Source: an uncultured Cytophagales bacterium
Lineage (GTDB): Bacteria; Bacteroidota; Bacteroidia; Cytophagales; Cyclobacteriaceae
Assembly (NCBI GenBank): GCA_937869105.1
Contig: CALMKZ010000002.1
Coordinates: 4,499-68,498, forward strand
DNA: 64,000 bases
Direction: 5' to 3'
Part shown: positions 1 through 31,578 of the stretch, piece by piece
How positions within the stretch are numbered: the first letter of the stretch is position 1
How the letters are laid out: each line of letters starts with the position of its first letter
Notes under the pieces: model-generated
Databases searched by the model: none
What the model was told of the DNA's origin: nothing
What the model saw: the letters and a program-made list of their open reading frames with translations, nothing else
Position numbers and translations under genes: made by a program

Positions 1-806
1 ATCCTCTTCAAACTCATCTTTATGTGATTCAACGAATTTATAGACGATTTCCTTTGATGCACCAATCAAATTGTTGAGGTCATAGTTCCATAAATATCCC
101 GTAGCAACCACTGATTTTGAATGCATCTCGAGAAACATATCTTGATATGTACCGTCTCCACGTCTGTATTTTGAGCCAACTACGTAATACGATCTTTCTG
201 AAGCGTTAGCCACATACTTGTGCCAAAGTCCAAAAGCAAAGTTCACAACCTTTTCGTTATCTGGCTTTCTCTTCAGTATTTCGGAGTGTAACTGAGACGT
301 TTTTGTGTGCGACTGTACTTTGATTCCAATCCCCCGTGCTATCAGGATAAGAGACTCTCTGCTATAGATGGGTAGCAGCTTGTTTTTTGAATATAGAAAA
401 GCAATCTTCCATTTTGCTATGCTATGTAAATCGATGTTTTCAATTTGATCGAACTCCTGCTTCTTTGCATGGTCAATTGTAGAAGAGATTAATGAACGGA
501 CTGTTTCAAAAGCTGTTTGAGAGTCGGACCCATATTTCTCGAGCCAAGAGTATTGCTCGTCTTGGAGGATTGATTTTCGTTTGTACTCCTTATCATTTTT
601 CCTCTTCCAGACACCGAATTTTACAAGTGAAACACCACTTATGCTCCCTAGTTTTTCAGTGCCCCATTCTACCTGATAGCAAAAAGTGTCATGGTTACCA
701 GTATCAGTATACTCCTCGATCGTCATACTGTTCACCCGGTCAACAGTCCATGTCGATAAAAACTCTGCAAGAATTTGATCGTAAGAATCTACATCCAGGT
801 GCATAG
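1..806 (-). CDS. Hypothetical protein, N-terminal part only (ORF continues past window start). It resembles N-terminal regions of McrB-type AAA+ restriction GTPases.
   Basis: My own minus-strand translation from the ATG at 806-804 gives MHLDVDSYDQILAEFLSTWTVDRVNSMTIEEYTDTGNHDTFCYQVEWGTEKLGSISGVSLVKFGVW...YYVVGSKYRRGDGTYQDMF... The frame is open for more than 265 codons to position 1. It is absent from the ORF track because it has no in-window stop. It starts 7 nt after the pAgo stop and sits in the same low-GC block. Confidence 0.55.
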
Positions 807-813
807 TAGCTGT

Positions 814-2337
814 TTATATATAGTACTTAAATGCCAGCGGTGGCGCTTTAATGTCGGTACTGGCAGTCAATATTTCTCCAATCTTATCCGCAAATCTTAA
901 AGTAACCGGAGCACCGTCAGCAAATATGCACGCATTATAATTCAATTTGGTAAGAGCCAAAATATCCTTTAGCACTTGTATGATGTCTGCTTCTCCTTTA
1001 TTGACTTCAATGAAAATTGGATTGGGAACTTCCATTGATAAAGTCGATTGCGTTTTAGGAACATATCCAACACTCCAAAGAAAGGCGCTCCGCTCATTTA
1101 CAATAAAGGCATTACCTCGCATTATGGGGTAACTGCCTTCTGTTTTAAATAGTTTTAAGGGCTTTGTTTTTGTAATGGTGACGCCAACAAGGTTGGTTTC
1201 ATTGGGTGTTACCTCCTGAAAGGCTGTCCACTCCTCCGTGTTAAATCTTGTCTTGGCATGAATAAATATTTCCTTTGGATATTCTCCATTTTGCTCCTTG
1301 TAAGATTCTAATGCTTGTATCAATAGAGCTTTTGCCTCTTTAGGTTTCAAATGAAATTCTCCTTTTTTTGGATTATACCAAGGACCAACTTCTCCCTTAA
1401 AAACAGTTCCATCTCCATTGTCTAAGAACATTTGAGCCGCGCAACAGGCATTCTTTGGGTCTTTACTTTTTTCAATCTCCTTATACACCAAGCCGAGATA
1501 GCAGACTCCACTTCTTATATCTGACAATTTCCAAGGTTTACCACCTGCTTTATAAAAAGCTGCAGTTGAAATTGTCCAAGCTAAATGTCCTTCAATCTTT
1601 GAAAAGTCTCTCAATGGTGCACCAAACTTGTTTTTAAAGTCTCGCCAAGCTAAAGTGCTTTCCCTCATTATTTGAGTAGGGATAGTATGTTGAAGTAATC
1701 TTGCTTTTAACTGGTCGTGGAATTGAGCGTCATAGTTATAAGTAATCGCTTCTTTCTCTTGCGCTTTCAACTCAGTATTTATGTCCTCGAATAAGGTTGG
1801 CTCATACCTGAAGCTCTTTGCTTTTGACTTTGTAATAAGCGATTTGGTTTGAACTAGGTCTTTGGGCAAAACAGAGTTTGGGCGACAATATTTATAAATC
1901 TCATCAGGAACAACCACAAACCAAACATCTACTTTTTCATCTTCGTTTTTATTAGCAGCAATTATTTTATTAATGAATAAAGTCACCAAATCATAGGTTC
2001 GTTTGTGGGTGCTGTCATTGTAGAGAAGTTTGCCTATTTCTTCATCAGTCACTTCTTTGAAAACAATTCCTTCCGATTCCCATTTGCATCCAAAGACCGC
2101 TTCAAATCCGGGAAACATGGGTCGTGTTATATTGTTGGTATTGTAAATCGGTTTTTGAATATGGTTTACGTAATTCTTAAAGATCTGCAATCCACCTTTT
2201 GTCGCTACCACTCCACTTTTAATTCCGAATATCTTATTTAAGGGTCCGAACAAAGCAAGGCCATCTCTGACATCAGTGCATTTCTGCCCATGACCAAAAA
2301 GAATGTTTGGTTCCGGGATGTAAATCAGTTCTTTCAT
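814..2337 (-). CDS. Short prokaryotic Argonaute (MID-PIWI only), SPARTA-type
   Basis: The protein is 507 aa. The N-terminus MKELIYIPEPNILFGHGQKCTDVRDGLALFGPLN and the C-terminus ...TLRFADKIGEILTASTDIKAPPLAFKYYI closely match my recollection of the published Maribacter SPARTA pAgo. The size is typical of short pAgos, and the gene has an ATGA overlap with the upstream TIR-APAZ gene. Confidence 0.93.
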   Translation of the reverse strand: MKELIYIPEPNILFGHGQKCTDVRDGLALFGPLNKIFGIKSGVVATKGGLQIFKNYVNHIQKPIYNTNNITRPMFPGFEAVFGCKWESEGIVFKEVTDEEIGKLLYNDSTHKRTYDLVTLFINKIIAANKNEDEKVDVWFVVVPDEIYKYCRPNSVLPKDLVQTKSLITKSKAKSFRYEPTLFEDINTELKAQEKEAITYNYDAQFHDQLKARLLQHTIPTQIMRESTLAWRDFKNKFGAPLRDFSKIEGHLAWTISTAAFYKAGGKPWKLSDIRSGVCYLGLVYKEIEKSKDPKNACCAAQMFLDNGDGTVFKGEVGPWYNPKKGEFHLKPKEAKALLIQALESYKEQNGEYPKEIFIHAKTRFNTEEWTAFQEVTPNETNLVGVTITKTKPLKLFKTEGSYPIMRGNAFIVNERSAFLWSVGYVPKTQSTLSMEVPNPIFIEVNKGEADIIQVLKDILALTKLNYNACIFADGAPVTLRFADKIGEILTASTDIKAPPLAFKYYI

Positions 2338-3686
2338 TCTGTCGCTGCTTCATCAGTAGATAAATCGTCAAGGTTATCCAGATCATCTATGTCTGCTAAT
2401 TCAACCTCTTCATCTAATGTGTTCTTTTCAGGTATATTGTAGCTGGTACTCCCCTTGAATTGAACAGGCTCATTTGAAACGAGAATTTTTTCTTCACTGC
2501 CAACTTCTAAATAAAATGAGCTTTCGTCATCAGAAAGGTATTTCACGAATGCCAACAACTTATTTCGCCAGTCGTCATTCCACCAATTTTTACCTTGTCT
2601 TCTCCTTGCTGAATGTTGTATTCCTTTGGAGTCTATTATGGTCTTACCATCTTGTGTGAAAAAGACGTGTGATAAAATCATTAAGACAGGAAAGGGATAT
2701 AGCTTTGCTGCACCAGATATACCATAATGCCAATTCTTATCTTTTTGTTTTCCGACTAGCTGAACTTTGTTGAATTTGTCTTTTTCAAGTTTATTCTTTT
2801 CAAACCAATAGCCCACCTTATTTGACAAAGAGTATTCACGAACTCCCTTTTCTTTCATACGTAACTCAAATGCCTTATTGATTAACTGAACAATTAATCG
2901 CTGACATTCAAAATTGCTGATGAACTCTGTATTGTAGTTCCCAGAGAAAATTTCACTTGTAAGAATCTTTATGGTTTTACTACTATCGTAGGTTTCTGTT
3001 TTAGGCAACTGGTGCATAAAGTCGTACTCCCAAGCAAATGTGCAGAGATAATTTTTATGAGGAATAGCAGGAAATGTTAATTCACGGGTATCAAATTCCT
3101 TAGGAATGAGTTTTTCAAAATTGTGAAAACGCAGCTCAATGGGAAATGAAAGAATCGAAAACCAATTGGAATCATATATTTCCTCCTTTTCAATTATCCC
3201 CTTGTTGTAGAGAAATATTTGCTGATACAATGAATTGCTTTTTGCGAAATCAGGATTGTCTTTAGGAACTTTTTGTTTTTCAAGAGCCTCTAACAAATCC
3301 TGCAAACCCGTTGCCCATGATTTTTTGAAATCAATTGCATTCAAACGAACAATGTCAATGTTGATGTCGTCATATGAAAGTCTCTCGTCTATAGCTAATG
3401 GGATAATAAAAGTTTCGTCATTGGTTTGCTTTTTCACTTTAGCAGCAACCGCCAATTCTTTCAAAACACCCTCACGCTGGTTTGATGCTGCCGAGGATAC
3501 AATCAAGAATTTGCTGGTATTTTCTCTGATTTCTTTTTCTATCCGACTCCAGAAATCTGCACCCTTATCCAAGAAAAGAACGTCACACCAAACATCATAA
3601 CCAATACCAATAAGCTTTAATGCCAACCATTTTGTAAAGTCGTTGTCATCAGGTGTTGCATGGCTTATGAAGATTTTATTTCTCAT
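2334..3686 (-). CDS. TIR-APAZ protein (SPARTA NADase effector partner)
   Basis: The protein is 450 aa. The N-terminal TIR domain reads MRNKIFISHATPDDNDFTKWLALKL...LIVSSAASNQREGVLKELAV, with a Glu at residue 77 in GVLKEL. The remainder is APAZ-like, and the tail is acidic. The gene has a 4-nt overlap with the pAgo start. Confidence 0.93.
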   Translation of the reverse strand: MRNKIFISHATPDDNDFTKWLALKLIGIGYDVWCDVLFLDKGADFWSRIEKEIRENTSKFLIVSSAASNQREGVLKELAVAAKVKKQTNDETFIIPLAIDERLSYDDINIDIVRLNAIDFKKSWATGLQDLLEALEKQKVPKDNPDFAKSNSLYQQIFLYNKGIIEKEEIYDSNWFSILSFPIELRFHNFEKLIPKEFDTRELTFPAIPHKNYLCTFAWEYDFMHQLPKTETYDSSKTIKILTSEIFSGNYNTEFISNFECQRLIVQLINKAFELRMKEKGVREYSLSNKVGYWFEKNKLEKDKFNKVQLVGKQKDKNWHYGISGAAKLYPFPVLMILSHVFFTQDGKTIIDSKGIQHSARRRQGKNWWNDDWRNKLLAFVKYLSDDESSFYLEVGSEEKILVSNEPVQFKGSTSYNIPEKNTLDEEVELADIDDLDNLDDLSTDEAATE

Positions 3687-4547
3687 TTATTGGCAGGCTC
3701 GACTATCATGTCAATCTCTCAAAATACGTAAAAATAGATGAGTATTCATTTTTGTAGTCGATTGTGTGTGGGGATTGGGCTCTTGCCATAGCTTTGGTTT
3801 TGCGATAGGTTTGCGCGGCTATGGCATGTGCCAAATGCGCGTGGGCAATCGTAGGTCGACTCTTCTTAAAAAATGCGAAGGGTTGGACAGTTCTTTCTCA
3901 CTTGTTCTAATGTTATTAATTGCCAAGTCTAAGTTGTCTCGAAGCCGTTCACTTGTCCCCGTGGGAAATCTTTGTTAGAAAATTGTCGTCCGTTTTTTTA
4001 AAACACAAATTTGTCCGGGCCCTATTGCTACCAACGTCTGTGTTTAAGAAACTCCGTCTCCTAAATATCCCTATTCCACACATCAATTTACAACAAACCA
4101 CAAAATCCGCGTACACCAAGCCTGGTTATTAAGCTTTCGCATTCTACACCTTTTGTAGTAGCTATCATGATTTGAAATAACAAACAAAATCTTATTCACA
4201 CTTTTCAAAATTCTCCTATCTTGTTTGGGTTGAGATTCCTCATCGATAGGAAATAGCTGATGGAGGTAAGCACCAGGTAAAAGCCTGATAATTTCAACAG
4301 ATGCACGGTTTTTGCAGCCTGCACCTTCGATTCCAGCATCAAAACGAAGAAAATAGACCAAAAGAGCGGTCAGACCACGGTCACCCCACGGTTAGCCCAC
4401 GGTCACCATTTAAGTAAGCTGGCCCTAAGCTTTATACCAGCTGGCCTGACACTAGCCTGAATCATGAAAGAACCATTGGACACGCTTACTGATTATCTCA
4501 CACGTTATTGAGTCTGTATATTCGCCAAATCGTCGATTCACTGGCTC

Positions 4548-5093
4548 ATGAACAGCACTGTCCGGATTACTTCCGTTTTTTCATGCTCCCTCGAACGGGC
4601 ATTTAAAACACCTATGCTCTGCGATGTATCAAAAGTGCACACGGGCTACGGTATCATGCCCAAAGTCACTCACTGCACGGAAGATGAAACTTGGGGACAG
4701 CCGGGTGGCAGCAAAAAGATCTTCGCTGCACCATCACTGACGCAAAAAGGCGGATATGCTTCCATGGACAAGGTCATCGAACGAATTGAAAATAAATACT
4801 GGAAGATAGAAGTGAGTGACTTCCAGGCGTGGATACTAGGGTTTAGCAAATTTACCGGTGAATGGCAGACCACGGAATTCGGGACCAATAAGATCCTGAT
4901 CAGGTACACCTACACGATGCACTCGGATCAATGGATACTGTTTCCTGTGCAGTGGCTGTTTACCAAACTCTTGTGGCGCGTGTACATGCGGCATGTATTG
5001 GAAAACGTGCGGCAACTGGCGTATCAGGAGGAGCCGTATATGTATCCGGGCACCTTCGGTGCAAATGCATTTCCCGCTGATAGCGCGGATTGA
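4548..5093 (+). CDS. SRPBCC/START-like hypothetical protein
   Basis: 181-aa ORF with a weak by-eye resemblance to SRPBCC proteins. The last ~15 codons and the stop are supplied by the adjacent repeat element. Confidence 0.4.
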   Translation: MNSTVRITSVFSCSLERAFKTPMLCDVSKVHTGYGIMPKVTHCTEDETWGQPGGSKKIFAAPSLTQKGGYASMDKVIERIENKYWKIEVSDFQAWILGFSKFTGEWQTTEFGTNKILIRYTYTMHSDQWILFPVQWLFTKLLWRVYMRHVLENVRQLAYQEEPYMYPGTFGANAFPADSAD

Positions 5094-5690
5094 ATGCACC
5101 GCTGATTAACGCGGAATTCTCTTTGAGAAAAAGAAAAAAACGCAGAAGGCACCTTCGGTGCAAGTGCAGTACCCATGGATGACTAGCTTTTTTGCCGCGG
5201 AGGCGCAGAGGCGCTAAGACGCCGAGGCACCTTCGGTGCAAATGCATTTCCCGCTGATCACGCAGATTGAATGCACCGCTGATTAACGCGGAATTCTCTG
5301 AAGAAAAAGAAAAAAAACGCAGAAGGCACCTTCGGTGCAAATGCAAAAGATCGCGATTAATAGAATCAAATTCCTCTCCGCGTCTTTGCGCCTCTGCGGT
5401 GAAAATTGCATCCTCCACGGATAGCCCTTGACAAAACTGTGCCACCCCGTTGGGGTTGCCGCTGCTAATATTAATGATCAGGTCTATTAAAATTTCACCC
5501 CTCCGGGGTTAAATGCACGATATTATGCTACCGAAGGTGCCCGTGTCTTTTTTTGTATTTTGTGTTCAATAATTCTTTGCGTCTCCGCGTCTTTGCGCCT
5601 CCGCGGCAAAAAATCCCCACGCCATCGCGCTTTGCGGTGAAAAGCATCAAATCATTCTCCGCGCCTCAGCGTCTCCGCGGCAAAAAAATT
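5040..5690. repeat. Intergenic repeat cluster with GCACC-TTCG-GTGC hairpin units, TTTCCCGCTGAT cores and CGCCTC(C/T)GCGG(C/T)(A/G)AAAA units
   Basis: ggcaccttcggtgca occurs at 5049, 5148, 5226 and 5325, and inverted at 5530. catttcccgctgat occurs at 5068 and 5245, a 177-bp period. ctccgcg.ctttgcgcctc.gcgg..aaaa-type units occur at about 5383, 5578, 5625 and 5660, and inverted at about 5195. Confidence 0.85.
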
Positions 5691-7239
5691 ATCTTTTGAT
5701 TTCGAAATTCAAATCATGAAAATCAAAACTGAAATCTGTCAGCGGCGATATGGCATGCATCGTGAAGGCCTTCGCCCTGCCTGATTCATTCAGCACAAAA
5801 TCCACATAACAATCCGCATCCAGGCTGCGGTCCTTCCACCGGGCCAGGAGGGTGTTGCCACCAAAGTACATCAACTCACCGGCAATGCGCGGTGACCGTT
5901 TCGACGCAAACCATAGCTTCCCATCCTTCATCGAAATAGTCACTTCGCCAAACCAGGGATCGACATAGGTTCCCATTACCGATGCAGGATCCATGGCCTT
6001 CCCGGATTTCCGATTGGTATCAGCAATCTGCCAGATGCTGTCCACCATATGATTTACTTTGGCTACCTGCGCATTGCGATTGCCGGAATACTCCTTCACC
6101 CGGTCCGTGCCGGTGATCCCAAAGTAACCGTCTTTGATCTGGTTGGTAATCGAAACAAACGCGCCTCCCTCCTGCTGGTTGGTCAATACAATGATGCCCA
6201 GGTTCAACTCCGGGATCATGGTAATCTGGGTCACCATGCCTTCCAATCCTCCGGTATGGCTAAGCTGCTTATATCCTTTCACATCACTTACACCGAAGCC
6301 CAGGCCATAGGCGGAGAAGTGGGTGTTGTATGCACCGGGGTTTCGCACAGGTATAATGGTCTGAGGTGTCCACATCTCTTCATGCACATTATCAGAAAAA
6401 AGCACTTTCTTATTCCCTTCACCATACTTGCCGTGATTCAATTGAAGCAGTACCCATTTGCTCAGGTCGGCGATGCTGGAGTTAAGTCCGCCGGCAGCGT
6501 GACCCACCTTGAGTGTATTTCGCCTCACCACCTGCACCTTGCCGTTGACGGGCGCATGACCGTCGATGACGTTGGACTTGTCCTTAAGTCGTTCATACGA
6601 AGCAGCGGTGTGGGTCATACCGAGGGGTTGAATAATTCTCTGTTCAACAAAATCATCCCAGCTCATGCCACTGACGCGGGCCACCACCTCACCGGCAATG
6701 ATGTACAGGTTGTTATCATAATCATATTTCGACCGAAAACCAGATACCGGCTTCAGGTGGCGGAGGTTATAGATAATATCCTTGAGGGTAAAGTCGCTGG
6801 AGTCCGGGAAGAACATGAGGTCACCTGCCCCCAGGCCCATCCCGCTGCGGTGGGTGAGCAGATCGCGGATGGTAAACTCTTCGGTGACGTAGGGGTTGTA
6901 CAGTTTGAATTCAGGAATGTAGTCCCTGACTTTATCATCCCACTTTATTTTTCCTTCGTCCACCAGGATACCCAGCGTGGCAGCGCAGAATGCCTTGCTG
7001 TTGGAGGCGATGCCAAAGAGCGTATTCTCGTCCACGGGCTGCTGGGTGTTCAGGCTCCGGACGCCATACCCTTTGGCATGAATGACTTTACCGTCTTTAA
7101 TGACGGCCACGGCAATGCCCGGCACGTTAAATGCCTTCATCGAACGAACAGCCAGTTCATCGATGGCTTTGGAGGTAAGCGGCTGGGCGGTGACTGAGAA
7201 GCAAAAAGCGGCCAGCACCAGAACAAGGTAATTTTTCAT
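5689..7239 (-). CDS. Serine hydrolase, class C beta-lactamase/penicillin-binding family, secreted
   Basis: 516 aa with a signal peptide, an SxxK motif (ASNSKAF), and a GYG...LLTHRSG context typical of the family. Confidence 0.8.
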   Translation of the reverse strand: MKNYLVLVLAAFCFSVTAQPLTSKAIDELAVRSMKAFNVPGIAVAVIKDGKVIHAKGYGVRSLNTQQPVDENTLFGIASNSKAFCAATLGILVDEGKIKWDDKVRDYIPEFKLYNPYVTEEFTIRDLLTHRSGMGLGAGDLMFFPDSSDFTLKDIIYNLRHLKPVSGFRSKYDYDNNLYIIAGEVVARVSGMSWDDFVEQRIIQPLGMTHTAASYERLKDKSNVIDGHAPVNGKVQVVRRNTLKVGHAAGGLNSSIADLSKWVLLQLNHGKYGEGNKKVLFSDNVHEEMWTPQTIIPVRNPGAYNTHFSAYGLGFGVSDVKGYKQLSHTGGLEGMVTQITMIPELNLGIIVLTNQQEGGAFVSITNQIKDGYFGITGTDRVKEYSGNRNAQVAKVNHMVDSIWQIADTNRKSGKAMDPASVMGTYVDPWFGEVTISMKDGKLWFASKRSPRIAGELMYFGGNTLLARWKDRSLDADCYVDFVLNESGRAKAFTMHAISPLTDFSFDFHDLNFEIKR

Positions 7240-7361
7240 AGGATGGATATGGGAATAAGCAATTCCAATTTATCAAAATTGCCGGATACCGACCATAGCC
7301 ATTTCGGTGCGGTCTGACGATAATCATGTTGCGAGAATCCGGGGAGTGGTACATTTAGAGC

Positions 7362-8990
7362 ATGAAGATCAAGGTACTAACCACGATACTGTGTTTAATT
7401 TCTCTGCCTGTTGCCTTGGCACAGGTAAACTTTACGTCATCCAATCTGCCGATTATTGTGATCAACACCCACGGGCAGACCATTCCGGATGAGCCGAAAA
7501 TTGATGCCGACATGGGCATCATCTACAACGGTGTCGGCTTACGCAACAGCCTCACCGATCCGTTCAATAACTTCAATGGCAAGATTGGCATTGAGTTGAG
7601 GGGATCAACATCTCAGGATTTGTTTCCCAAAAAGCAATACGGCATTGAAATCCGGGATGCCAGCGGAAAAGGCATTGATGCGTCCTTGCTGGGGTTGCCG
7701 AAAAAAGACGACTGGGTGCTTTTTGCCCCCTATGATGACAAGAGTCTCATGCGCGATGTGTTGGCGTACAAGCTGGGCAGGGACCTCGGGCGTTACGCAT
7801 CCAGGTCTGTGTATTGCGAAATGGTGCTTAATGGAGAATACATGGGTGTCTTTGTGTTGTTGGAAAAGATCAAACGTGACAAGAACCGGGTGAATATCGA
7901 CAAGCTCGACATCACCGAAAACACCGGAGACAACCTGACTGGTGGATACATTCTGAAACTAGACAAAATCGAAGGCAGCGGTGGCGCGGGATGGAACTCA
8001 CCCTATCCGCCTCCTAACCGCAGCGGCGGGCAAACAACCTACTTCCAATACGAATATCCCAAACCTGAAGATATTACCGCTGAGCAAAAGGCATACATCA
8101 TCAACTACATCAGAGAGTTTGAGAATACCCTCGCCATGGACAATTTCAAAGATCCGGTAAATGGGTATGCCAAATACATTGATGTGGATTCGTTCGTGGA
8201 CTATTTCATCGCCAATGAACTCAGTCGCAATCCGGATGCCTACCGGATCAGTACATTTATGTACAAACGCAAGGACTCCGATGGCGGCAAACTCTTCATG
8301 GGGCCCATATGGGATTTCAACCTGGGCTTTGGCAACGTGAATTTTTGTGCGAAGGAAAAACCGGAAGGTTTTATCATTGATTACAACATGATTTGCCCCA
8401 GCGATGGTTGGCTCGTCCCGTTCTGGTGGAGTCGCCTGTTTGAAGATCCCGCCTTTAAAACCAAAGTAGTTACCCGCTGGCAGACCCTGCGCTCCAAGAC
8501 CTACGCAACCTCCCGTATCACCGACTACATCGATTCTGTGTCCCATGTTCTGAACCTTGAATCGCAGCAACGCAACTTTCAACGTTGGCCTGTCCTGGGG
8601 CAATATGTATGGCCCAACAGTTTTGTGGGACCGACCTTTCAATCAGAAGTAGATTGGCTCAAAGACTGGGTGACCCGCAGACTATCCTGGATGGACGCAA
8701 ACCTTCCGAATGTAATAACCACGTATGAAAACAATCCAGTGAGATTTGCCGTAACCGCTTCTCCCAATCCTTTCCAGGACAATATCACACTGCGGTATCA
8801 ACAAGTTCAGCCCGGTCCGATCCACACTGAGATAGTCGACATGGCAGGGCGCAGGCTCTATAGCTTCACCCGTTATGAAGATGCCGGTGTCTATGAAGAG
8901 AAACTCGCCGTTCCGTTGGAGTCCGGATTGTACCTGATCCAGTGTACCAGCGCAGGACAGCAGGTCATCGTAAAAGTAATCAAGCACTAA
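7362..8990 (+). CDS. CotH kinase family protein with T9SS C-terminal sorting domain
   Basis: 542 aa with a signal peptide. The CotH-like core reads VLNGEYMGVFVLLEKIKRDKNRVNI. The C-terminal ~80 aa form a beta-rich tail (...GLYLIQCTSAGQQVIVKVIKH). Confidence 0.75.
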   Translation: MKIKVLTTILCLISLPVALAQVNFTSSNLPIIVINTHGQTIPDEPKIDADMGIIYNGVGLRNSLTDPFNNFNGKIGIELRGSTSQDLFPKKQYGIEIRDASGKGIDASLLGLPKKDDWVLFAPYDDKSLMRDVLAYKLGRDLGRYASRSVYCEMVLNGEYMGVFVLLEKIKRDKNRVNIDKLDITENTGDNLTGGYILKLDKIEGSGGAGWNSPYPPPNRSGGQTTYFQYEYPKPEDITAEQKAYIINYIREFENTLAMDNFKDPVNGYAKYIDVDSFVDYFIANELSRNPDAYRISTFMYKRKDSDGGKLFMGPIWDFNLGFGNVNFCAKEKPEGFIIDYNMICPSDGWLVPFWWSRLFEDPAFKTKVVTRWQTLRSKTYATSRITDYIDSVSHVLNLESQQRNFQRWPVLGQYVWPNSFVGPTFQSEVDWLKDWVTRRLSWMDANLPNVITTYENNPVRFAVTASPNPFQDNITLRYQQVQPGPIHTEIVDMAGRRLYSFTRYEDAGVYEEKLAVPLESGLYLIQCTSAGQQVIVKVIKH

Positions 8991-9005
8991 GTAAACCCAT
9001 TCTGC

Positions 9006-9209
9006 CTAAGGCGCATGGGTGTCGCCATCGTCTGCCCGTTTCTTCACGGAGCGATAGACCAGCCAGCCGAAGCCGACAAGCACAACGAATGGCAAATACT
9101 GCCCGATGGTATAGCCGATTTGGTATCCGCGGTCATGCGCTACGGAATCCTGCGCCTTCAGGCCGATGGAAAGCGCCATGAGACAAACAACAAGGATGCT
9201 CTTTTTCAT
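9006..9209 (-). CDS. Small secreted/membrane protein
   Basis: Starts MKKSILVVCLMALSIGLKAQ (signal peptide) and has one further TM segment. The start was moved to the internal ATG at 9209. Confidence 0.45.
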   Translation of the reverse strand: MKKSILVVCLMALSIGLKAQDSVAHDRGYQIGYTIGQYLPFVVLVGFGWLVYRSVKKRADDGDTHAP

Positions 9210-9241
9210 AACTTGGGGTGGCACAAAAATAAACGCTTCCC

Positions 9242-9538
9242 ATGATCATTCGCATCGTACGCATGCATTTTACCGATGCCTCACTCCCCCGGTTTCTGGA
9301 AATCTTCAACAACCACAAACTGGCGATACGCAATTTTCCGGGATGCACACACCTTCAGTTGATGAAGGACCCGGCCGATCCGCTCTGCCTTACCACACTC
9401 AGCCATTGGAATCTCGCAACTGATCTTGAGCGCTATCGCACCTCCGAACTTTTTGAAGGTGTCTGGCGTCAGGTGAAGCCTTTGTTTGGCGCTCGTACCC
9501 AGGCGTTCTCGCTCGAATCATTTATTAGTGTGCCTTAG
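9242..9538 (+). CDS. Antibiotic-biosynthesis-monooxygenase (ABM)-like small protein
   Basis: 98 aa. The size and the [10 protein letters not shown]...SHW...YR pattern fit the ABM ferredoxin-like fold. Confidence 0.5.
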
Positions 9539-11016
9539 CGGTACGACGTTTCATTCCAGCGCAGTTCGTTCTTCAATTGCGTCAGTGTGGTGCCGGTGCC
9601 AATGCGAATCATTTCAATACCGGCCATCTCGGCAAAATCCTCGAGGTACTCAGTGGTCAGGTTCTGACTATACACTGTATGATGCGCCCCACCGGCCAGT
9701 ATCCATCCTGCGCAAGCGGTATTCATATCGGGCAGGGGTTTCCACAACACACGCGCCACCGGCAGCTTGGGCAGCGGTTGCTCCGGAGCAATGGCACTCA
9801 CCTCGTTCACCAGCAAGCGGAAACGATTTCCCATATCGATCATGGATGCATTCAGGGCATTGCCCGGCGCCGTATTGAACACCAAACGAACGGGATCGGC
9901 TTTCCCGCCAATACCCAGCGGATGGATCTCACAAGTGGGCTTTCCCTCCGCAATGGACGGACATATCTCCAGCATATGCGCACCCAACACCTGGTTGTTG
10001 TTGGCGGCAAAGTGATATGTATAATCTTCCATAAATGAGTTCCCCCCCGGCAAGCCTGTGGCCATTACCTTCATCGCGCGTACCAACGCTGCAGTCTTCC
10101 AGTCTCCTTCAGCACCAAAACCATAGCCATCGGCCATCAGTCGTTGGACCGCGATGCCCGGCAATTGTACCAGTCCATGCAGGTCTTCAAATGTGTCCGT
10201 GAATCCTTTGAAGTTTCCATCGACGAGAAACATCCGTAAACCGATTTCGATGCGGGCTGCCTCCCGCAGCGAACTGCGGTGAGCACCATCCTTCTTCAAC
10301 GAAGATGCCAACGTGTACGTATCCTCGTATACCTTAACCAATTCATCAACTTCCGCATCAGAAACCTGCCGGATAAAAGTTACCAGGTCACCCATACCAT
10401 ATCCATTGACACTATAGCCAAACTTGATCTGGGCTTCCACCTTATCACCTTCGGTAACCGCTACCTGGCGCATGTTGTCACCAAAGCGGCAGAACTTTGC
10501 ATTTTGCCAGTCATGCCAGCCGAGGGCCGCACGCGACCAGACATTAATACGGGCAATTACTTCAGGATCCTGCCAATGACCGACCACCACTTTGCGGGTA
10601 AGCCGCATCCTGCTCATGATGAAACCAAACTCGCGGTCACCGTGTGCTGACTGATTCAGGTTCATGAAATCCATATCAATGGCACTCCAGGGGATATCGC
10701 GATTGAACTGGGTATGCAGGTGCAGCATAGGCTTGCTCAAAATCTTCAAACCGCCGATCCACATTTTGGCTGGTGAAAAGGTGTGCATCCAGGCTATTAC
10801 GCCAATACATGGAGCCGAGGCACTGGCTTCACTGCATACTGCTGCGATCTCATCCGGGGTCTTCACTACCGGTTTGAACACTATTCGGACAGGGATGCCT
10901 GAGGCATTGAGTCCATTAACGATCACTTGCGAATGATCTGCTACTTGCTTGAGCGTTTCTTCCCCGTAGAGGTGTTGTGAGCCAGTGAGAAACCAGAGTT
11001 CGGGAGTTGGAGACAT
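9535..11016 (-). CDS. araA: L-arabinose isomerase
   Basis: [20 protein letters not shown] is a typical AraA N-terminus, and the length from the internal ATG at 11016 is ~493 aa. The longer ORF start lies inside an 8-bp microsatellite. Confidence 0.92.
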
Positions 11017-11021
11017 AATCT

Positions 11022-11053
11022 GAGGATTTGAAGATTTGAGGATTTGAAGATTG
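11022..11053. repeat. 8-bp microsatellite (gaRgattt x4)
   Basis: The sequence gaggatttgaagatttgaggatttgaagatt lies between araD and araA. It is the reverse complement of the tcaaatcttcaaat motif at 54181-54275. Confidence 0.8.
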
Positions 11054-11113
11054 GTCGCTGGTTGAATCCAGGAATAGGTGTGTCTCAAGAAGAGACAGGT
11101 TTATGTTGATAAG

Positions 11114-11815
11114 TCAGGTTGACTGGCCATAATAGGAATCAGGGCCGTGTTTGCGTTGGTGGTGTTTCTGAATCAGGGAGTTCTTCAAACGCGGGGCGGT
11201 AGGGTTGATTTGTAATGTGAGGTGTGCCATCCTGGCCAGCTCCTCAAGAACGGCTGCATGGTACAAGGCTTTTTCAGCCGTCTTACCCCAGGCAAATGGT
11301 GCATGATTGCCTACCAGCATCATCTCCACTTCGGTGGGATCCAGGTTTCTGGATTTGAAACAGTCGATAATCTGATAGCCGGTTTCCAACTCATAGTTTC
11401 CGGATATCCGGGCGTCGTCCATCGGAGGAGCGCAGGGCACATCGACAGTCAGGTGGTCGGCATGGGTTGTTCCAAAAATAGGAATGTCTTTGCCCGCCTG
11501 GGCCCAGGCAGTAGCATACGTTGAATGGGTATGAACAATGGCACCCTGCGAAGACCAGTGCTTATACAGCACTGCGTGGGTCAACGTATCAGATGAGGGT
11601 CGCAGGTTGCCCCACTGAACAATACCATCGTAATCAACGATTACCATCTTATCGGGGGTAAGCTGATCATACGGAACGCCGCTAGGCTTGATAGCAAAAA
11701 CAGACGCGGCACGGTCAACCACGCTTACGTTACCGAAGGTGAACATCACCAGGCCGAGTCGTGGCAGTTGCAGGTTGGCCTCAAAGGCTTCCTCTCGCAG
11801 GGTCTTGTAATTCAT
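11114..11815 (-). CDS. araD: L-ribulose-5-phosphate 4-epimerase
   Basis: 233 aa with class II aldolase/epimerase motifs (GNVS, HTHS, HADH). It has a 4-nt overlap with araB. Confidence 0.9.
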   Translation of the reverse strand: MNYKTLREEAFEANLQLPRLGLVMFTFGNVSVVDRAASVFAIKPSGVPYDQLTPDKMVIVDYDGIVQWGNLRPSSDTLTHAVLYKHWSSQGAIVHTHSTYATAWAQAGKDIPIFGTTHADHLTVDVPCAPPMDDARISGNYELETGYQIIDCFKSRNLDPTEVEMMLVGNHAPFAWGKTAEKALYHAAVLEELARMAHLTLQINPTAPRLKNSLIQKHHQRKHGPDSYYGQST

Positions 11816-13494
11816 AATGATAGAGTGCTCGTGTTTGTCGAAATAAATTTTCCCAATTGCTGATAACGTTCATAACGTTTGGCGTAGATACCGGTGACCT
11901 TGGCCTGTGGCTTGTATTCAGCATCAAAGCCCTGCCCCATCGAAGCCATCGCCTCCTCCACCCGTGGATACAACCCGGCGGCCGTGGCGGCAAACATGGA
12001 AGCACCGGCGGCACAAGTCTGTTCTGACCGATGAATACGGATTGGCATGTTCATGACATTGGCCATCACCTGCATGATATACGGTGACTTGCGCGCTACA
12101 CCGCCCAGTCCGATCAGCGCTTTGACGGGAACGCCCTGCTCATTGAACCGATCCACGATGGCTTTGGCACCAAAGCAAGTACCTTCCACCAATGATTTAA
12201 AGATGGCAGGCGCATTGGTTGCCAGGTTCAAAGACGTGATACCTGCTTTTAACGTCTGGTCCGCATCCGGCGTACGACGACCATTGAGCCAGTCCACTGA
12301 TAGTTCGTCCTGCTCTCCTATGGGTAGCGACATGGCTTGCCTGCTTAATTCAGGAATTAGTTTATCTGACCACTCACTGCGCAACCGGTCGCGTTGGGCA
12401 GCGTCGAGCCAGGTATTTTGCTGAAGCAACGTTTCCATGGGCCACTGCAGTAATTTTTGAAACCAGGCATAGGTATCGCCAAAAGCAGATTGACCTGCCT
12501 CCAACCCCATCATGCCCGGAATGATTGATCCATTCACCTGTCCGCAGATGCCATGAACCAACGTATCTTTTATTTCAGCAATCGGCGCGACGAGCATATC
12601 GCAGGTGGAAGTACCCATGACTTTACTGAGGTGGTACGGTTCGATTTGTCCACCTACCGCCCCCATGTGTGCATCAAATGCACCAACACCAACAATCACC
12701 TCCGTGGACAGTCCCAGTCGCTCCGCCCAGGCACTGCTCAGTTTTCCGGCAGGCTTATCTGAGGTGAATGTTTCAGAAAATAAACGCGACGTGAATCCCT
12801 TGAGCAGCGGATCCAGCGAACTAAAAAATTCATCCGGTGGTAATCCCCCGAACTCTTTTGCCCAGAGCGCCTTGTGGCCGGCTGAACATACCCCCCGACG
12901 CAGCTGAAGCACATCGGTTCCTCTGGTGAGGAGAAATGGTATCCAGTCGCAGTGCTCGACCCACGAGTAGCAGGCCTTGCGCACGGACTCATCCGCTCGT
13001 AGTGTGTGAAGTAATTTCGCCCAGAACCATTCTGAAGAGTAAATGCCACCTACAAACTGCAGGTAGTTGGTTTTGAACTTCGTCGCGTGGCTGTTGATCT
13101 CGGCGGCTTCTTTAACGGCCGTGTGGTCCTTCCACAGCACAAACATGGCGTGGGGATTTTTTTCAAAGCCAGGCAACAGGCTAAGCGGAGTACCGGTTTT
13201 ATCTACCGCAACCGGGGAAGACCCCGTTGTGTCTACAGCGATGGCGCGGATGTTTTGTTGTACAGTGACACCTGCTTGCTTCAGCGCTGACCGGATTGAC
13301 TGCTCAAGACCTTCCACATAGTCGGCAGGGTGTTGTCTGAATTGAGATTGAACAGGATCGCAAAACAGACCTTCGCTCCAACGCGGATAACGCACGACGG
13401 CGCTTGCCACTTCCTGGCCGTTCGCAGCGTCCACGATGAGCGCCCGCACCGAATCAGTACCGAAGTCCACGCCAATCACATAATTCTCTTTCAT
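11812..13494 (-). CDS. araB: Ribulokinase
   Basis: 560 aa. It has an FGGY kinase N-terminus (IGVDFGTDSVRA) and sits in an ara operon context. Confidence 0.9.
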   Translation of the reverse strand: MKENYVIGVDFGTDSVRALIVDAANGQEVASAVVRYPRWSEGLFCDPVQSQFRQHPADYVEGLEQSIRSALKQAGVTVQQNIRAIAVDTTGSSPVAVDKTGTPLSLLPGFEKNPHAMFVLWKDHTAVKEAAEINSHATKFKTNYLQFVGGIYSSEWFWAKLLHTLRADESVRKACYSWVEHCDWIPFLLTRGTDVLQLRRGVCSAGHKALWAKEFGGLPPDEFFSSLDPLLKGFTSRLFSETFTSDKPAGKLSSAWAERLGLSTEVIVGVGAFDAHMGAVGGQIEPYHLSKVMGTSTCDMLVAPIAEIKDTLVHGICGQVNGSIIPGMMGLEAGQSAFGDTYAWFQKLLQWPMETLLQQNTWLDAAQRDRLRSEWSDKLIPELSRQAMSLPIGEQDELSVDWLNGRRTPDADQTLKAGITSLNLATNAPAIFKSLVEGTCFGAKAIVDRFNEQGVPVKALIGLGGVARKSPYIMQVMANVMNMPIRIHRSEQTCAAGASMFAATAAGLYPRVEEAMASMGQGFDAEYKPQAKVTGIYAKRYERYQQLGKFISTNTSTLSL

Positions 13495-13499
13495 ATCTG

Positions 13500-14189
13500 C
13501 TATGCAGGGTTAATGTTCAGGAATGTCTGGTAGCGATACTTTCGCTTGTTCAGGCGGTGGTAGTAAGCCCCCTTCTTTGAATTGCTTTTTTCTTTATCGT
13601 CGGTGCGCACCAAAAGTCCGCTGGATAACACCTTGCGACTAAAATTGCGCTTGTCAAATTCCTTTTCGTAGACACTTTCATACAACTGCTGCACCACGGG
13701 AAGGGTGAACCGCTCGGGCAACAATTCAAATAAAACAGGTTGAATGGCTGCTTTCTTGCGCAAGGTAGCCTTCGCCGCTTCTACCATGGCTTCATGGTCA
13801 AAGATGAGGCTCGGAATCTTCTTGAGCGAAAACCACTCGGGCTTATAATCGCCACTCAGTTGTTGCTCATACTGGTAAATGTCAATGAGTGCATAGAATG
13901 CCACCGAGATCGTGCGCTCCACGGGATCCCGCTCCGGATCACCAAAGGCACGCAGTTGCTCCATGTACACACCACTCAATCCGGTAAGCTGTTTCAGAAT
14001 GCGGGCTGCAGCGTCTTCAAGGCTTTCTTTCGACTGAACAAATCCACCCATGAGGCTCCACTTGCCGCGCTCCGGCTCAAAGCCGCGGTGAATCAACAGC
14101 AGCTTCAACTCCTTGCCATCAAAGCCGAAGATGATGCAATCAACAGCCACGAGGGCACGAAGTTGATGAGGATAGCGAGGGCCGGACAT
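13500..14189 (-). CDS. Nudix-domain transcriptional regulator (NrtR/AraR type)
   Basis: 229 aa with a Nudix fold region (GKWSLMGGFV...ESLEDAAARILKQLTG) and a C-terminal wHTH-like part. The position inside an arabinose operon matches the Bacteroides AraR arrangement. Confidence 0.7.
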   Translation of the reverse strand: MSGPRYPHQLRALVAVDCIIFGFDGKELKLLLIHRGFEPERGKWSLMGGFVQSKESLEDAAARILKQLTGLSGVYMEQLRAFGDPERDPVERTISVAFYALIDIYQYEQQLSGDYKPEWFSLKKIPSLIFDHEAMVEAAKATLRKKAAIQPVLFELLPERFTLPVVQQLYESVYEKEFDKRNFSRKVLSSGLLVRTDDKEKSNSKKGAYYHRLNKRKYRYQTFLNINPA

Positions 14190-31463: not shown

Positions 31464-31545
31464 GCCAAAGTGGCGGAACTGGTAGACGCGCACGACTCAA
31501 AATCGTGTATCTTCGGATGTGCGGGTTCGATTCCCGCCTTTGGTA
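31464..31545 (+). tRNA. tRNA-Leu (anticodon CAA), type II with long variable arm
   Basis: I folded the cloverleaf by hand. The acceptor is gccaaag/ctttggt (G1-U72). The anticodon stem is cacga/tcgtg with loop ctCAAaa. The variable arm is atc-ttcg-gat and the T arm is gcggg-ttcgatt-cccgc. No CCA is encoded. Confidence 0.9.
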
Positions 31546-31578
31546 CTAAATCCTATTTCTTACTTCATCTCAGGCCTT

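Follow-up and report, generated by a model that had tools for sequence, protein, structure and literature searches.

What is the pair of minus-strand genes at positions 814 to 3,686 of a 64,000-nucleotide (nt) stretch of DNA from an uncultured Cytophagales bacterium (contig CALMKZ010000002.1; the whole stretch is called the window below), and what would it do for its host? An earlier note, made from the letters of the DNA alone, had read the pair as a complete defence operon of the SPARTA type, in which a short prokaryotic Argonaute (pAgo) is joined to a TIR-APAZ protein. We found that this reading is supported by family profiles, by ungapped alignments to structures in the PDB and by sequence identity, and we are highly confident that the two genes form a canonical SPARTA system composed of a clade S2A short pAgo and TIR-APAZ. 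The presence of the genes, their architecture, their family membership, the conservation of functional residues and the purifying selection acting on them are all observed in this DNA and its relatives. The pair is an uncharacterised orthologue of a well-understood system, real but ordinary.

Both open reading frames (ORFs) of the proposed pair, encoding 450 and 507 amino acids (aa), are present in the sequence, as is the overlap between them, an ATGA on the minus strand in which the stop codon TGA of TIR-APAZ shares bases with the ATG of pAgo. In the ORF list, the TIR-APAZ protein begins with MRNKIFISHATP, also given as MRNKIFISHATPDDNDF, and contains GVLKELAV, whereas the pAgo begins with MKELIYIPEPNILFGHGQKCTDVRDGLALFGPLN and ends in PPLAFKYYI; GVLKELAV and the PPLAFKYYI C-terminus had both been singled out before and both appear in the translations. 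The Glu that had been placed at residue 77 of the TIR protein is likewise there, encoded by a GAA codon at 3456-3458. Neither gene contains a frameshift, stop or indel relative to the solved orthologues.

Profile searches and structural matches assign both proteins to the same family. Residues 5-132 of TIR-APAZ match Pfam TIR_2 (E = 1.1e-17) and residues 1-438 match the PADLOC profile Aga_TIR-PNTD1-PNTD2 (E = 3.6e-141), the TIR/APAZ match for which the earlier note had suggested searching, and residues 2-507 of the pAgo match PADLOC pAgo_I (E = 1.6e-195). Among PDB entries, TIR-APAZ aligns end to end and ungapped with BabSPARTA (8qlo_A, E = 4.9e-236) and MapSPARTA (8fex_A, E = 2.8e-230), and also matches CrtSPARTA (8ifk_A, E = 1.6e-216). 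Residues 1-507 of the pAgo align ungapped with residues 1-507 of 8qlo_B and 8fex_B (E = 0 for both), and the CrtSPARTA pAgo is matched at E = 1.3e-300; chance cannot account for matches of this strength. Counted on the alignments, TIR-APAZ and pAgo are 76.1% and 87.4% identical to their Bab counterparts and 74.7% and 83.8% identical to those of Map; for Crt (Thermoflavifilum thermophilum, locus L019), tblastn gave approximately 72% and 84%. High identity to characterised SPARTA proteins is therefore found, as anticipated, and the long match to the Maribacter pair named in the earlier note is real, but the nearest solved relative is BabSPARTA. Map and Bab are themselves 72.6% (TIR-APAZ) and 79.7% (pAgo) identical to each other, which is no higher than their identity to the window pair, and the window pair thus sits inside the characterised cluster.

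These searches also bear on the possibility that the locus encodes a different short-pAgo system, namely SPARSA, whose effector is SIR2, SPARDA, whose effector is a nuclease, or Mrr-TIR-APAZ. Such an identity would fit the weaker PADLOC matches to Aga_REase-TIR-PNTD1-PNTD2 (4.2e-47) and Aga_SIR2-PNTD1-PNTD2 (3e-26), but we consider it vanishingly improbable: the plain TIR-APAZ and pAgo_I profiles score better by roughly 100 orders of magnitude, and the partner begins with its TIR domain at residue 1-5 and carries no Mrr/REase or SIR2 domain, a domain architecture that refutes all three.

Because the alignments are ungapped and the numbering is common, published structural residues could be checked directly, and we compared them position by position with Map and Bab. 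The window pair has the same residue as MapSPARTA at all ten positions where mutation lowered or abolished the NADase activity of the latter in vivo (E77, D40/K41, W46, R54 and R114 of TIR-APAZ; D133, Y262, K504 and Y505 of the pAgo). The TIR domain contains the catalytic Glu77, the BB loop D40-W46 and the tetramerisation residues R54 and R114, and E77, D40, K41, G42, D44, F45, W46, R54 and R114 are the same in Map and Bab; the mutational evidence and the roles of E77, the BB loop, R54 and R114 are described in PMC10899771. The pAgo retains its pocket for the guide 5'-phosphate (H207, K211, Q222 and K263; PMC10355822), as well as R225 and T228, which contact the RNA guide, and N468 together with the C-terminal I507 as ligands of Mg2+ (PMC11156904). 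Y148, R152 and K395 are there too, as are D306 and D309, the masking residues, and the dimerisation elements (N129-D137, Y262, P499-A502, K504 and Y505). The nucleic-acid contacts of TIR-APAZ are conserved as well (N174, R201, K211, N212, R263, Q267, K271, S288, K328, H340, R362 and K366). Its 34-residue tail (417-450) contains 14 Asp/Glu and 1 Lys/Arg and is acidic at 426, 427, 429, 432 and 435, all five of which face the channel and contact it in BabSPARTA; the acidic tail of BabTIR-APAZ is autoinhibitory (PMC10899771). Every SPARTA-defining feature that is open to a test on sequence is in place.

The similarity of TIR-APAZ to its relatives is not uniform along its length. Its TIR domain is closer to Map (82.8% identity) than to Bab (72.4%), and for the linker and APAZ domain the order is reversed, with 81.5% identity to Bab and 72.6% to Map. 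This mosaic pattern (window 2439-3686) hints at domain-level recombination among SPARTA lineages.

Published work on SPARTA, including the Bab, Map and Crt structures (PMC9097488, PMC10899771, PMC11156904 and PMC10355822), has established how those complexes are activated, and from it we propose how the pair would act. TIR-APAZ and pAgo would assemble into a 1:1 heterodimer with a positively charged channel built from the APAZ lobe and the MID/PIWI lobe of the pAgo, and a TIR-MID contact and the acidic tail would hold this heterodimer in an autoinhibited state. The MID pocket would grip the 5'-phosphate of a small guide RNA drawn from the transcriptome, and the complex would be triggered when this guide pairs with complementary single-stranded DNA from an invader that is multicopy and highly transcribed. 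Target pairing is expected to expel the tail and to remodel or displace the PIWI sensor loop, upon which pAgo-pAgo dimers would arise, one TIR would rotate by approximately 177 degrees and its BB loop would be inserted into the neighbouring TIR. The resulting tetramer of heterodimers would have composite NADase sites centred on Glu77, and degradation of NAD(P)+ would lead to cell death or growth arrest, clearing the invader from the population (abortive infection). The sequence elements required at each of these steps are all present here. By analogy with the characterised orthologues, which are 75-87% identical, the pair would be expected to form the complex, to have their guide and target preference, to act as an NADase and to confer immunity.

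A scan of one genome per species identified 28 other loci (L009 to L036) with close relatives of the pAgo (71-96% identity), among them the contig of BabSPARTA (JADBKC010000166.1) and the genome from which CrtSPARTA derives. In 22 loci the sequence reaches far enough upstream, and in every one of them the gene directly upstream of the pAgo encodes a TIR-APAZ homologue (63-91% identity); ATGA stands at the pAgo start in 21 of the 22. Relative to the nearest relative (L009), the ratio of nonsynonymous to synonymous substitution rates (dN/dS) is 0.038 for pAgo and 0.033 for TIR-APAZ; relative to the other loci, synonymous sites are saturated and the proteins are still 78-90% identical. A dN/dS of approximately 0.035, together with saturated synonymous sites beside conserved proteins, indicates strong purifying selection on both genes. 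The hosts comprise Cytophagia, Flavobacteriia, Chitinophagia, Bacteroidia and Ignavibacteria (Ignavibacterium), and other bins with SPARTA are labelled Bacillales, Ruminiclostridium and 'uncultured archaeon', which suggests wide horizontal transfer under strong constraint or, in some cases, mis-binned contigs.

One of the related loci (L029:7001-8558) has GTGA at the junction instead of ATGA. The best tblastn segment of its pAgo goes no further than residue 413 and covers more DNA than expected, and this pAgo may be frameshifted or otherwise disrupted. Searches of phage and plasmid collections with the operon DNA gave no match. A protein search of plasmids with the PIWI half returned approximately 100 plasmids with relatives at 44-51% identity, mostly Rhizobiales and Sphingomonadales megaplasmids (Alphaproteobacteria; for example NZ_CP117472.1 and NC_015184.1). 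At no more than 51% identity, these relatives belong to other short-pAgo lineages. Nearly all are labelled 'hypothetical protein', and short pAgo systems appear to be under-annotated on plasmids.

Several observations weigh against the SPARTA reading and are considered together here. The pAgo matches no Pfam-A family (Piwi/MID) at E <= 0.01 and no NCBIfam family, and the precomputed Pfam column for the identical pAgo in public contigs is also empty; the PIWI/MID match sought in 814-2337 was thus obtained with PADLOC pAgo_I and not with Pfam-A or NCBIfam. We attribute this silence to the poor reach of those libraries for short pAgos, so that it does not bear on membership of SPARTA; nor does the missing match count against the call, since the PADLOC pAgo profiles decide the matter together with the PDB matches. 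A second point is how firmly the loss of the PIWI nuclease tetrad, a feature that supports SPARTA, can be read. We used hhalign to align a profile of 19 SPARTA pAgos with TtAgo (Thermus thermophilus HB27, plasmid pTT27), whose tetrad we take to be D478, E512, D546 and D660; these positions read D, E, D and D in the retrieved sequence. The alignment is weak (E = 0.0044, probability 7.8%), although it is collinear over the PIWI core. It places E512 at H329, D546 at K362 and D660 at D484 of the pAgo, whereas D478 falls outside the aligned block and corresponds to V284 or Y285 by the register of a G-x-D motif. Across the 19 SPARTA pAgos, H329, V284 and Y285 are invariant, K362 is nearly so, and D484 is replaced by Asn in two. 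With three of four tetrad positions non-acidic, the PIWI domain is predicted not to be a nuclease; the tetrad is, on this alignment, broken, as expected for a short pAgo, all of which are without the DEDX catalytic tetrad (Koopal et al., PMC9097488). Two further points are single residues: the duplex-contact position 287 of the pAgo is Glu here, and the hinge position 147 of TIR-APAZ has Phe in this pair where Bab has Pro and Map has Ala; at both positions Map and Bab also differ from each other. In addition, MapSPARTA in E. coli acted on plasmids, and its protection against phage was not robust (PMC9097488). Finally, scans for sigma-70 promoters and for terminators found nothing above the shuffled background.

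The promoter result would also fit a relic, in which intact ORFs are no longer expressed or active in the host, and so would the foreign G+C content (GC) of these horizontally acquired genes. A simple promoter scan does not, however, cover Bacteroidota-type promoters. A regular-expression search upstream of TIR-APAZ for TAnnTTTG, presumably the Bacteroidota -7 motif, gave one match, and only a relaxed one. Open frames free of the lesions that a relic might carry, intact residues at every mutation-tested position and the low dN/dS all argue that the genes are maintained, and we give a relic a very slim chance. We therefore retain the reading of a canonical SPARTA system.

The genomic setting of this SPARTA pair was examined in the window and in public contigs. 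Both proteins, in exactly this form, have entries in NCBI nr, where they are labelled hypothetical proteins, and the representative of the 90%-identity nr cluster of TIR-APAZ is a 'hypothetical protein' of a Cytophagales metagenome-assembled genome (MAG). They occur on 21 of the contigs that were read, including contigs of GCA_035343895.1 and GCA_003504855.1. One such locus, L001, matches window 1-12337 at 100% identity and runs approximately 2.2 kb past the left end of the window. The operon has a GC of 36-38%, whereas the window outside it is at 50%. The low-GC tract, as seen in L001, extends from approximately 8000 to 13890 (approximately 5.9 kb); its right edge lies near window 4340-4400, where GC climbs from 0.36-0.40 to approximately 0.48-0.50. 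It consists of four same-strand genes, encoding TIR-APAZ, the pAgo, a 520-aa protein and a 142-aa protein, and is bordered by host-GC genes, an unannotated 181-aa ORF and a SAM_HAT gene. The pair sits in a horizontally acquired, approximately 5.9-kb low-GC defence island of a Cytophagales bacterium. A search for marks of a mobile element (flanking direct repeats, an integrase or a tRNA) found only short two-copy repeats at chance level, and the window's single tRNA (Leu-CAA, 31464-31546) is 27 kb away. PADLOC found no defence family among ten large ORFs at 32-63 kb. The features of the operon and its immediate surroundings are listed in the table.

Table. Features of the SPARTA operon and adjoining DNA in the window.
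Feature	Positions	Strand	Description	Basis
TIR-APAZ gene	2334..3686	minus	450 aa + stop	ORF list, Pfam, PADLOC, PDB matches
Short pAgo gene	814..2337	minus	507 aa + stop; MID + PIWI only	ORF list, PADLOC, PDB matches
ATGA stop/start overlap	2334..2337	minus	TIR-APAZ to pAgo	Read from sequence
TIR NADase domain	3249..3686	minus	Approximately aa 1-146 (boundary approximate)	Residue check against Map/Bab numbering
Linker + APAZ domain	2439..3248	minus	Approximately aa 147-416; N/L1/L2-like lobe, predicted to form the duplex channel with pAgo	Contact residues
Acidic C-terminal tail, putatively autoinhibitory	2337..2438	minus	aa 417-450	Composition; function from PMC10899771
Non-coding leader, right edge of island	3687..4340	minus	Presumed operon promoter region	GC step
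520-aa neighbour gene	1..804	minus	First 268 codons	Translation; PADLOC PD-T4-1, E = 8e-26

The earlier reading overlooked the third gene, which abuts the pAgo. The ATG of this 520-aa gene is at window 804-802, 9 nt past the pAgo stop, and its full length is found at L001:11534-13096. Residues 10-258 of its product match positions 31-278 of the 383 positions of the PADLOC PD-T4-1 profile (E = 6.2e-25 for the full-length copy), and the C-terminal 260 residues fall outside this match. At the C-terminus there is a weak match, below the cut-off, to the restriction-endonuclease-fold family Tox-REase-9 (E = 0.027), and by eye we infer, near residues 440-470, a D...EVK motif of a kind typical of PD-(D/E)xK nucleases. 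A sequence search of the PDB with the protein found nothing significant, and PD-T4-1 by name is absent from the main text of Vassallo et al. Unrelated plasmids also carry the N-terminal domain, in fusions with AAA-ATPase and DUF3883 proteins. The protein resembles PD-T4-1 (an E. coli anti-T4 defence gene; PADLOC PDLC04021) in its N-terminal half and differs in its C-terminus, which has the weak restriction-endonuclease-fold signature instead; we refer to it as PD-T4-1-like.

The position of this gene raises the possibility of an extended three- or four-gene system, in which the 520-aa gene is co-transcribed and serves as a second effector or sensor with SPARTA in this lineage. The 9-nt same-strand gap leaves no room for a promoter of its own, its GC is low like that of SPARTA, it fits a defence-family profile, and the three genes are contiguous in all eight contigs with the exact pAgo. 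These eight contigs are, however, 99.9-100% identical and represent one strain or species, so their contiguity is not independent evidence. None of the 28 other SPARTA loci has the 520-aa gene or the 142-aa gene, not even the nearest relative (93% pAgo identity), and at the level of organisms the plasmid matches to the N-terminal domain fall outside those with short-pAgo relatives. Furthermore, MapSPARTA and BabSPARTA function as two-protein complexes (PMC9097488, PMC10899771), and APAZ proteins are the sole specific associates of short pAgos (Koopal et al., PMC9097488). An extended system therefore has a slim chance, and because the 520-aa gene is absent from the 28 other loci, we rejected it as a SPARTA component and regard it as a defence-island neighbour. 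It is probably an independent, modular nuclease-type defence gene that happens to abut SPARTA, and its co-transcription with SPARTA is plausible. If the two were coupled after all, SPARTA in this lineage would have gained a nuclease or sensor arm, which might pair NAD+ depletion with DNA cleavage or widen the range of triggers.

The last gene of the island is the low-GC, same-strand 142-aa ORF (L001:13452-13880), beyond the left end of the window, which has no match in Pfam, PADLOC or NCBIfam; some contigs call a 127-aa version of it. At the other edge, three tandem 11-nt units (GGTGACCGTGG-like; window 4367-4407, L001:7931-7971) stand exactly where GC switches from approximately 0.48 in the host to approximately 0.38 in the island, and these units could mark the insertion junction. 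The 181-aa ORF that adjoins the island there (window 4548-5093, plus strand, host GC) has no Pfam or PADLOC match; in two contigs (L003 and L004) a 159-aa gene is called at its position, on the variable-repeat side. Between this ORF and a beta-lactamase-family gene is an intergenic region packed with repeats (window 5046-5345 and approximately 5188-5687; L001:6651-7290). It contains two direct copies of approximately 120 nt, 177 nt apart and 91-93% identical, and several GC-rich units of 32-35 nt (TTTTTTGCCGCGGAGACGC...) in direct and inverted orientation. L004 has one fewer 120-nt copy, which shows that the copy number is polymorphic. A 161-aa ORF at 4960-5445, in which HLHRRCL motifs recur, probably arises as an artefact of the repeated DNA.

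Few short-Argonaute immune systems are as well characterised as SPARTA, for which the PDB has more than 40 entries, and this locus has little discovery value in that respect. It provides one more natural variant for the engineering of diagnostic tools, with a Map-like TIR, a Bab-like APAZ and an unusually acidic tail, and an example of SPARTA entering a Cytophagales genome by horizontal transfer in the form of a compact cassette. It also shows SPARTA paired in a defence island with an uncharacterised PD-T4-1-like gene that has a nuclease-like C-terminus, and of all the items at this locus that gene is the least understood.

Compared with known systems, the window pair resembles SPARSA, SPARDA and other short-pAgo systems (S1A, S1B and S2B) in combining a MID-PIWI pAgo with an APAZ-effector and in the guide-dependent oligomerisation expected of it, but their effector is SIR2 or a nuclease rather than TIR, and the similarity is far lower (PDB E = 2e-37 or weaker; PADLOC 3e-26). 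CrtSPARTA (Crenotalea / Thermoflavifilum thermophilum; PDB 8ifk and others) has the same architecture; it comes from a thermophile, is slightly more distant and shows a one-residue offset at the C-terminus of the TIR-APAZ alignment. MapSPARTA (Maribacter polysiphoniae; PDB 8fex and others; Koopal et al., Cell 2022, PMC9097488) shares E77 and all mutated positions with the window pair, and both have Bacteroidota hosts, whereas its APAZ is more diverged (72.6%) and its tail is less acidic, with G and Q in place of D432 and D435. BabSPARTA (Bacillales bacterium MAG; PDB 8qlo/8qlp; Finocchio et al., NAR 2024, PMC10899771) differs in its host and genomic neighbourhood, in the sequence of its tail (46% identical to that of the window pair) and in having Pro rather than Phe at hinge position 147. 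In architecture, protein lengths and numbering the two are alike, with an acidic tail in common and identical catalytic, BB-loop, tetramerisation, dimerisation and 5'-phosphate residues.

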